Shown here: positions 9,809 to 10,702 of the stretch, piece by piece | Layout: the number at the start of each line of letters is the position of its first letter | Numbering within the stretch: the first letter of the stretch is position 1 | From: Escherichia coli | GTDB taxonomy: Bacteria; Pseudomonadota; Gammaproteobacteria; Enterobacterales; Enterobacteriaceae | NCBI RefSeq assembly: GCF_051903065.1 | Contig: NZ_CP178438.1 | Length of the DNA stretch: 64,000 nt | Reading direction: 5' to 3' (one strand) | Notes under the pieces: model-generated | What the model was told of the DNA's origin: nothing | Databases searched by the model: none | What the model saw: the letters and a program-made list of their open reading frames with translations, nothing else | Position numbers and translations under genes: made by a program

Positions 9809-10702
9809 TCATTTGTGGTTCGGCAAAATCCTCCAGAACGCCTCAATCAGCGGCTCATGCAGCCGCTTTTTTTGTGCACACACGCCCAGTTCAAACGGCG
9901 TTTTCTCATCGCTGCGATCTAAAATCATTACCCGGTTGCGTACAGGCTCCGGGCTGTTTTCCAGCACCACTTCCGGCAACAGCGCCACACCACAGCCGAG
10001 CGCCACCATCGATACCATCGCTTCATGCCCGCCAACCGTGGCGTAAATCATTGGGTTGCTGATTTTATTGCGTCGAAACCACAGTTCAATGCGGCGGCGT
10101 ACTGGCCCCTGATCGGCCATGATAAACGGTACCGTTGACCAGTCCGGCTTCTCTACCGAGACCTGATTACGCACCGGGCAGGGCAGCGCGGGCGCAATCA
10201 GCACTACCGTCAGATTCTCCAGCATCGAAAACGCCACAGCGCCGGGTAGCATCTCCGGTTTCCCGGCAATCGCCAGATCCGCTTCTCCCGTGACCACTTT
10301 TTCCATTGCATCTGCCGCATCACCAGTGGTGAGTTTGATCTCCACCGACGGGTGTTCCGCGCGGAAGCGGTCGAGAATCGGCGGCAGATGGCTGTAAGCG
10401 GCGGTCACCGAGCAGAAGATATGTAATTCGCCAGAGAGCGACGGTCCTTGCTGGTCGATGGTGTGGCGCAATTGCTGATATTGCAACAGCGTTTGCTGGG
10501 CGAAAACGCGCAGCTCTTCGCCCGCTTCAGTCAGCGTCACCGTGCGGTTATCGCGCACAAACAGCGGCTGACCGAGATCTTCTTCCAGGCGCTGAATCTG
10601 CCGTGAGAGCGTGGACGGGCTAACGTGCATTGCCCGCGCGCTGCGGCCAAAATGGCGGCTTTCCGCCAGATGCAGGAAGGTTTTCAGATCGCGTAAATCC
10701 AA
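9809..10702 (-). CDS. ilvY: LysR-family regulator IlvY
   Basis: ORF 9809-10786; known N-terminus [18 protein letters not shown] begins at a TTG codon (revcomp of 10700-10702 = ttg), giving 297 aa. Confidence 0.88.

Follow-up and report, generated by a model that had tools for sequence, protein, structure and literature searches.

The window, by which we mean the whole stretch of Escherichia coli DNA that was analysed (64,000 nucleotides), represents the chromosomal segment from hdfR to recQ, as is evident from the annotated regions of strains ECNB21-M121 and K-12 MG1655. The genes are arranged in the order hdfR, the ilv operon, ilvY-ilvC, rep, gppA, rhlB, trxA, rho and the wec/rff cluster, followed by a tRNA cluster, aslBA, hemYXDC, cyaA, cyaY, dapF, xerC, uvrD, corA, pldA and recQ. 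A 601-nt probe placed around the ilvY start matched 5,425 out of 5,426 complete E. coli genomes, with 100% identity in three of them. Coding starts were taken from the RefSeq (PGAP) annotation of the near-identical strain ECNB21-M121 (NZ_CP083585.1), the first 45 nt of each CDS being mapped onto the window by exact match. The features relevant to this study are the following:

9809..10702, minus strand: ilvY CDS, 297 aa, LysR-type regulator (PGAP, Pfam)
10700..10702, minus strand: ilvY initiation codon TTG, which is GTG in K-12 (read directly; PGAP CDS start)
10711..10715, minus strand: Shine-Dalgarno (SD)-like GAGGG, 8 nt 5′ of the ilvY TTG (sequence)
10784..10786, minus strand: decoy in-frame ATG, 28 codons 5′ of the ilvY start, opening a mechanical ORF of 325 aa (9809..10786)
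22973..22978, plus strand: ATGTGA at the wecB start, an out-of-frame ATG directly followed by TGA (sequence)
22975..22977, plus strand: wecB initiation codon GTG (read directly; PGAP and K-12 CDS start)
22975..24105, plus strand: wecB CDS, 376 aa, UDP-GlcNAc 2-epimerase (PGAP, Pfam)
44052..44054, plus strand: cyaA initiation codon TTG (read directly; PGAP and K-12 CDS start)
44052..46598, plus strand: cyaA CDS, 848 aa, class I adenylate cyclase (PGAP, Pfam)
63679..63702, plus strand: pldA intrinsic terminator hairpin (terminator scan), its T-run ending about 17 nt before the recQ start
63723..63725, plus strand: alternative in-frame GTG two codons 5′ of the recQ start, the start of a 611-aa database form, overlapping the SD-like GGGGT
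63727..63750, plus strand: out-of-frame ATG overlapping the recQ GTG (ATGTG), 7-codon ORF MWRRRKC* (sequence)
63729..63731, plus strand: recQ initiation codon GTG (read directly; PGAP and K-12 CDS start), the CDS running past the window end
847, minus strand: hdfR start GTG (PGAP)
13302, minus strand: start GTG of a pemK-like toxin gene (PGAP)
20758, plus strand: wecA start GTG (PGAP)
27309, plus strand: wecD/rffC start GTG (PGAP)
50254, minus strand: start GTG of a 502-aa hypothetical gene (PGAP)
59083, plus strand: ysgD start TTG (PGAP)

The original prediction had proposed that the N-termini of IlvY, CyaA, WecB and RecQ can be recovered solely from TTG or GTG codons. Direct reading of the sequence confirmed TTG or GTG at all four positions and in frame with the proposed N-termini, and each of the four is the exact PGAP start mapped from ECNB21-M121. 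The curated record of K-12 MG1655 agrees with all four positions, the codon itself being identical for cyaA, wecB and recQ. As a list of non-ATG starts in the window, the prediction was correct in its four members and incomplete, as the last six features given above are also annotated with non-ATG starts. Altogether, the 61 mapped CDS start with ATG in 51, GTG in seven and TTG in three cases (83.6, 11.5 and 4.9%), corresponding to ten non-ATG starts among 61 coding genes (16%). In more than 600 bacterial genomes AUG, GUG and UUG account for 80.1, 11.6 and 7.8% of the starts (PMC5499595). The frequency of non-ATG starts in the window is thus at the normal background with no excess over chance; the seven GTG and three TTG starts fit general near-cognate initiation in bacteria (GUG ~12%, UUG ~8%) without any difference, and ilvY, cyaA, wecB and recQ are not special among the genes of the window.

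The consequence claimed for ATG-only annotation also held. Such calling mis-sizes all four genes, extending ilvY by 28 codons or shortening it by 24 residues, and removing 26 residues from CyaA, 15 from WecB and 46 from RecQ. The conserved N-termini are obtained only from the TTG and GTG codons, as judged by the beginnings of the Pfam domains, the chain starts of PDB entries 1OYW (RecQ) and 1F6D (WecB) and the stop codon upstream of cyaA.

In ilvY, the TTG at 10702-10700 (minus strand) is followed by GAT TTA CGC GAT CTG AAA, encoding D L R D L K. Pfam aligned positions 1-60 of HTH_1 with residues 3-62 and LysR_substrate with residues 89-293 of the 297-aa protein. The first downstream in-frame ATG encodes Met25, and a start at this codon would discard 22 of the 60 HTH_1 positions. 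K-12 ilvY (b3773) has the same CDS boundaries and the same N-terminal protein sequence as the window, with GTG there and TTG here. For a comparison across the family, species-representative genomes were scanned with GppA and 10-kb flanks were taken, yielding 80 Enterobacteriaceae loci that span the ilvY and wecB starts. The ilvY set (n = 63) consisted of 61 Enterobacteriaceae loci, the window and K-12, and the codon was read at the homologous position after anchoring by protein alignment. It was GTG in 49, ATG in 12 and TTG in two sequences. That only the three canonical start codons replace one another here is a classic hallmark of genuine initiation sites, and ilvY forms a clean natural series of GTG, TTG and ATG starts in Enterobacteriaceae that is moreover dimorphic inside E. 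coli.

In the same 63 sequences a conservation boundary and a 3-nt periodicity begin at the start codon. The major-allele frequency averaged 0.68 over positions -30 to -1 and reached 0.99, 0.98 and 0.89 by codon position downstream. A GGAG/GAGG-type motif is present 8-10 nt upstream in most of the sequences and the rest of the spacer is variable, the last eight positions being the most variable ones (~0.4-0.7). An in-frame stop occurs within seven codons upstream in 39 of the 63 sequences, and in 19 there is no alternative NTG whatever.

The mechanical ORF of ilvY comprises 325 aa because of the in-frame ATG at 10786. According to the work of Wek and Hatfield as cited in PMC5002191, operator O1 of IlvY has its centre at +17 relative to the start of ilvY transcription; its sequence, ACATTGCAATTTTTGCAACGT, was located at 10743-10723 (minus strand). 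From this published K-12 operator position, and not from data of the present strain, the transcription start would be placed near 10749. The ATG at 10786 would then lie ~37 nt upstream of it and hence outside the mRNA, again on the basis of the published K-12 mapping as cited. Since a consensus promoter scan of the ilvY-ilvC region found no promoter, the transcription start rests on the published operator position. A further in-frame TTG (10717), five codons 5′ of the ilvY start, is present in the haplotype of the window without an SD element and is TCG in K-12.

Within cyaA, an in-frame stop at 44031, seven codons upstream of the TTG, closes the frame, with no NTG in between and no other NTG before residue 18. 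The first ATG encodes Met27; a start there would cost ~22 positions of Adenyl_cycl_N, of which positions 2-198 align with CyaA residues 5-200 (Pfam). Orthologous loci retrieved by exact-protein look-ups showed that the TTG is retained in five out of five cases (E. coli, Salmonella, Klebsiella, Serratia and an Erwinia-like contig). The motif ATCAGGCGA upstream of it is kept in the four other genera, and the boundary of conservation and the periodicity at the start were seen qualitatively in these five sequences. The same 60 nt precede the codon in K-12. Conservation of UUG in cyaA of many Enterobacterales has been described (PMC5499595), and the UUG start of E. coli cyaA (Roy et al. 1983; Reddy, Peterkofsky and McKenney 1985) concerns the same gene and the same codon without any difference. 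The original prediction had in addition named the UUG as a limiter of adenylate cyclase expression. This agrees with the relative expression of 1:2:6 for UUG, GUG and AUG obtained by changing the codon (Reddy et al. 1985, as cited in PMC5499595), which establishes the cyaA UUG, as far as reported there, as a documented brake on adenylate cyclase synthesis.

The wecB codon is GTG in 59 out of 59 Enterobacteriaceae sequences, one alignment row being read as a 1-nt alignment offset. The conservation boundary begins at this codon and the downstream periodicity amounts to 0.98, 1.00 and 0.69 by codon position (n = 59). There is no alternative NTG in 34 of the 59 sequences, and a stop is found within six codons upstream in 25. 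In the window no in-frame ATG precedes the GTG, the first ATG encoding Met16. The chain of 1F6D begins at the GTG-encoded residue, and homologous epimerase structures align from WecB residue 1-2. K-12 wecB (b3786) shares boundaries, N-terminus and GTG, with one base different in the 60 nt upstream.

For recQ, GTG was retained in all five orthologous loci obtained by exact-protein look-ups (E. coli, Cronobacter, Kosakonia, Dryocola and Mangrovibacter). In the four genera other than Escherichia, the GTG is preceded at 5 nt by GGAG or by the GGGG known from E. coli, and the pldA terminator hairpin is kept as well; boundary and periodicity at the start were again seen qualitatively (five sequences). 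K-12 recQ (b3822) has the same boundaries, N-terminus and GTG, and its 60 nt upstream are identical. Before the upstream stop there is no in-frame ATG. The first ATG encodes Met47 and lies inside the MPTGGGKS motif, so that a start there would remove 20 positions of the DEAD domain, which begins at residue 27 (Pfam). The chain of 1OYW begins at the residue encoded by GTG 63729. The products of ilvY, wecB and recQ are all low-abundance proteins.

Curated annotation, comparison across genera and protein completeness agree with one another and thereby support starts at 10702, 44052, 22975 and 63729. In our view the four codons are very probably ordinary near-cognate bacterial initiation codons, and we infer that they are the starts used in vivo in the present strain. 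Mechanistically, the initiator fMet-tRNA (anticodon CAU), bound in the 30S P site, reads UUG and GUG through a first-position mismatch that IF3 tolerates for both codons; the proteins consequently start with (formyl)methionine instead of Leu or Val, and initiation is less efficient than at AUG. Each of the four sites appears to be preceded by a weak-to-moderate SD-like element at workable spacing. The GAGGG of ilvY is a good one, AGG of cyaA (9 nt upstream) and AAGAG of wecB (7 nt upstream) are weak, and GGGGU of recQ (5 nt upstream) corresponds to GGAG elsewhere. TTG and GTG may also serve a lowered, tuned expression of ilvY, wecB and recQ. The four genes were absent from the searchable supplements of TRAINSPOTTER, Nakahigashi 2016 (TetRP), Giess 2017 and a 2024 Salmonella riboproteogenomics paper.

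All four starts are already contained in reference annotations and reflect known bacterial behaviour, cyaA being a textbook case. The significance is therefore one of annotation hygiene only: callers restricted to ATG truncate or over-extend these four and the six other genes of the window, and PGAP and similar standard pipelines already call all ten correctly.

A different question is whether the ATG that overlaps two of these codons out of frame also captures initiating ribosomes, with GTG still being used and the N-termini unchanged. The annotated starts of wecB (cgATGTGaaa) and recQ (aATGTGgcg) lie inside ATGTG, whereas those of ilvY and cyaA are outside such a context. For wecB this would mean a start-stop at AUGUGA followed by re-initiation at GUG, and for recQ a 7-codon peptide whose synthesis would compete with that of RecQ; either event would put a further level of control on expression. 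Both genes are among the 18 K-12 ‘atGTG’ genes in Table 2 of Kohl et al. 2022 (NAR 51:271; PMC9841429), which scored no SD for either, so that no SD of at least 4 nt would steer the choice; protein abundance is given there as 14 ppm for wecB and 0.6 ppm for recQ. The same study demonstrated ambiguous initiation at other AUGUG sites and an A4-dependent termination-reinitiation at NUGUGA, in each case for genes other than wecB and recQ (PMC9841429). With the published AUGUG/GUGUG sites the window shares ATGTGA (wecB) and ATGTGG (recQ), a likeness of sequence context and its conservation.

The two bases 5′ of the wecB GTG are AT in 49, TT in eight and AC in two of the 59 sequences, and A follows at +4 in all 59; the eight TTGTGA variants would also form a start-stop. 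However, the conservation of AT is not attributable to the ATG, given that the whole stretch of 13 nt upstream of the GTG is almost invariant, and the A at +4 is accounted for by Lys AAA at codon 2. In recQ the out-of-frame ATG is missing in three of the four other genera (Cronobacter, Dryocola and Mangrovibacter). Taken together, additional capture of ribosomes by the overlapping ATG seems possible but unlikely, and a specific role of this ATG is possible but unsupported. The near-invariant AAGAGAATCGATGTGA stretch of wecB together with the covarying hairpin just upstream could constitute a regulated start-stop initiation module of the enterobacterial common antigen operon; Rfam contained no family for this wzzE-wecB hairpin. 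Both wecB and recQ would be suitable cases for the published AUGUG ambiguity model.

[quoted passage not shown] All of these codons are in frame and open, and this reading draws mainly on GTG 63723, two codons ahead of the recQ start. The window has the recQ leader GGG-GTG-AAT-GTG, and many automatic annotations pick GTG 63723. The resulting 611-aa RecQ (MNVAQAEV...) represents the main E. coli cluster, which comprises 10,300 database sequences. Of 120 RecQ entries compared, 64 have the canonical N-terminus and eight, the 611-aa form included, begin two codons earlier, the others being longer or shorter; longer forms that read through have Val at the canonical start position. Public RecQ entries consequently differ by two residues at the N-terminus. 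However, Kosakonia has GTC and Dryocola GAG in place of the upstream codon, and a GTG at this position overlaps the SD-like GGAG or GGGG without leaving a spacer. The start at 63729 is favoured because the upstream codon is not conserved and has no spacer to the SD-like element. Purified RecQ was reportedly sequenced from its N-terminus by Umezu and coworkers in 1990. As to the other candidates, ATG 10786 lies upstream of the mapped ilvY transcription start and TTG 10717 is neither preceded by an SD nor present in K-12, and the upstream stops described above frequently close the ilvY frame. In wecB, GTG 22933 falls within the conserved intergenic hairpin at 22930-22955, and the upstream stops in 25 of the 59 sequences argue in the same direction. 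A start further upstream in any of the genes is accordingly considered very improbable.

The reading that the true starts are the first downstream ATGs (IlvY Met25, CyaA Met27, WecB Met16 and RecQ Met47), with the NTG-to-ATG stretch as an untranslated leader, is barely conceivable, since such ATGs do exist in all four genes but the stretches in question show a codon-periodic conservation (~0.98-1.0 at the first and second positions, with variation at the third), starts at the ATGs would cut into HTH_1, Adenyl_cycl_N and DEAD and remove the WecB segment that aligns in the homologous crystal structures, and mutation of the cyaA UUG alters cyclase output (as cited in PMC5499595).

Within E. coli the ilvY start codon differs between strains. 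The K-12 leader reads ...catCgagggctgTCcCT-GTG and that of the window ...catTgagggctgCGcCA-TTG, the 14 nt that precede the codon differing by four linked substitutions. Haplotypes were counted with 34-mers centred on the start codon, a search in which any mismatch within that codon defeats the 28-nt word of megablast. The TTG form (...ctgCGcCA) occurs in 3,276 of the 5,426 E. coli genomes, 1,656 of them exact and 1,620 with one end-proximal mismatch, and the K-12 GTG form (...ctgTCcCT) in 1,774, with ~376 genomes unclassified. One of the mismatched TTG genomes was inspected and carries a G-to-A change in the SD (GAGGG to TAAGGG), a change that about half of the TTG genomes may share. Chimeras, that is the TTG haplotype with GTG or ATG and the GTG haplotype with TTG, gave no match in the 5,426 genomes, which indicates that the start codon is fully linked to the flanking substitutions; a search of the E. 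coli genomes with an L007-type GTG haplotype gave no match either.

The Escherichia albertii representative has the TTG form. A rare or albertii-like TTG allele, as only four records with at least 99% identity over 10400-11000 might suggest, was ruled out, as the 34-mer shows TTG to be the majority allele of E. coli. Compensation of the linked substitutions within an mRNA structure was rejected, both leaders being no better than shuffled sequences (z = +0.76 and +0.78).

The ilvY dimorphism is most simply read as the outcome of ordinary recombination between diverged alleles. That the linked haplotypes represent a co-adapted level tuning of an autoregulated LysR regulator, as opposed to neutral hitch-hiking, appears doubtful to us, the start-stop module of wecB being a second candidate of this kind. 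The unusual part is the longer segment, with 58 differences between the window and K-12 over 1,044 ilvY positions, mostly at third codon positions. Unlike ilvY, the other three genes have start contexts that are nearly fixed in E. coli: the wecB 34-mer was present, exactly or near-exactly, in 5,424, the exact cyaA 34-mer in 5,421 and the exact recQ context in 5,351 of the 5,426 genomes.

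The initiation region of ilvY (10686-10719, minus strand) exists in two forms within E. coli, which differ in the start codon and in the flanking SNPs. By a 34-mer search in 5,426 E. coli genomes, the TTG haplotype was detected in 3,276 genomes and the GTG haplotype of K-12 in 1,774, counts that leave approximately 376 genomes unclassified. Linkage between the start codon and the flanking SNPs was complete, and none of the three chimeric haplotypes generated by swapping these elements yielded a match in the 5,426 genomes. In about half of the genomes carrying the TTG haplotype, the Shine-Dalgarno sequence GAGGG is altered to TAAGGG, the change having been read in one inspected genome. 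Genomes labelled O157:H7 were found among the matches of both haplotypes (H16 and H41).

Comparison of ilvY and the adjoining intergenic segment (9809-10852) with K-12 revealed differences at 58 of 1,044 positions, mainly at third codon positions and clustered between +221 and +871. This divergence of 5.6% is well above the approximately 1-2% expected between E. coli strains. Over positions 10400-11000, identity of at least 99% was obtained for only four out of 5,431 records.

Beyond the four non-ATG starts of the original prediction (ilvY and cyaA with TTG, wecB and recQ with GTG), six more are annotated in the window:

845-847, minus strand: GTG start of hdfR
13300-13302, minus strand: GTG start of the pemK-like toxin gene
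20758-20760, plus strand: GTG start of wecA
27309-27311, plus strand: GTG start of wecD/rffC
50252-50254, minus strand: GTG start of a 502-aa hypothetical protein
59083-59085, plus strand: TTG start of the small protein gene ysgD

The GTG of the 502-aa hypothetical protein is the least secure of the six, as an ATG is present at residue 11. For recQ, the N-terminus (63723-63731) is inconsistent among public Enterobacteriaceae entries. Among the database sequences (P0001-P0120), lengths of 603, 604, 608-611 and 615 aa occur, and the longest reach 630 aa, since different starts are chosen by the gene callers.

Approximately 20 nt 5' of the wecB GTG, a hairpin was identified by predicted pairing and covariation:

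22930-22938 pairing with 22947-22955, plus strand: hairpin in the wzzE-wecB intergenic region

Compensatory double changes were observed at all nine predicted base pairs among 29 Enterobacteriaceae sequences. No T-run follows the hairpin, and Rfam yielded no matching family; the 13-nt stretch between hairpin and wecB GTG, GAAGAGAATCGAT, is nearly invariant.

Rfam matches at the gathering score within the window comprised four tRNAs and three other elements:

3131-3420, plus strand: 'Rev39 5'UTR', spanning the ilvL leader/attenuator region
18533-18632, plus strand: TrxA 5'UTR thermometer
39283-39489, plus strand: GlmZ sRNA

Annotation, together with Pfam for all but ilvG, further revealed differences in gene content relative to K-12:

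3440-5086, plus strand: ilvG, intact, 548 aa
12853-13302, minus strand: PemK/MazF-family toxin gene, intact, 149 aa, GTG start
47041-51355, minus strand: four-gene insertion in the cyaY-lptM interval
57173-58090, minus strand: SAM hydroxide adenosyltransferase-family gene, 305 aa (SAM_HAT_N and SAM_HAT_C)

Whereas ilvG is a well-known frameshifted pseudogene in K-12, it is intact in this strain. The toxin gene occupies the place of the K-12 pseudogene yifN, and no annotated antitoxin gene adjoins it. The cyaY-lptM insertion, for which K-12 holds yzcX instead, carries genes for a 184-aa DUF3304 protein, for two weak DKNYY-family members of 502 and 431 aa, and for a product of 141 aa without a Pfam match. 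Full-length copies of this insertion occur in 911 of the 5,426 genomes. The SAM hydroxide adenosyltransferase-family gene is flanked by uvrD and yigE, an interval consisting only of a spacer of ~146 nt in K-12.

Finally, hemX, as given by ORF listing and annotation, varies in length between strains:

40736-41965, minus strand: hemX

It encodes 409 aa in the window, 405 aa in the near-identical strain ECNB21-M121 (NZ_CP083585.1) and 393 aa in K-12. Between wecB and cyaA, the register of the window relative to NZ_CP083585.1 shifts by 12 nt, which may be explained by the four-codon difference in hemX.
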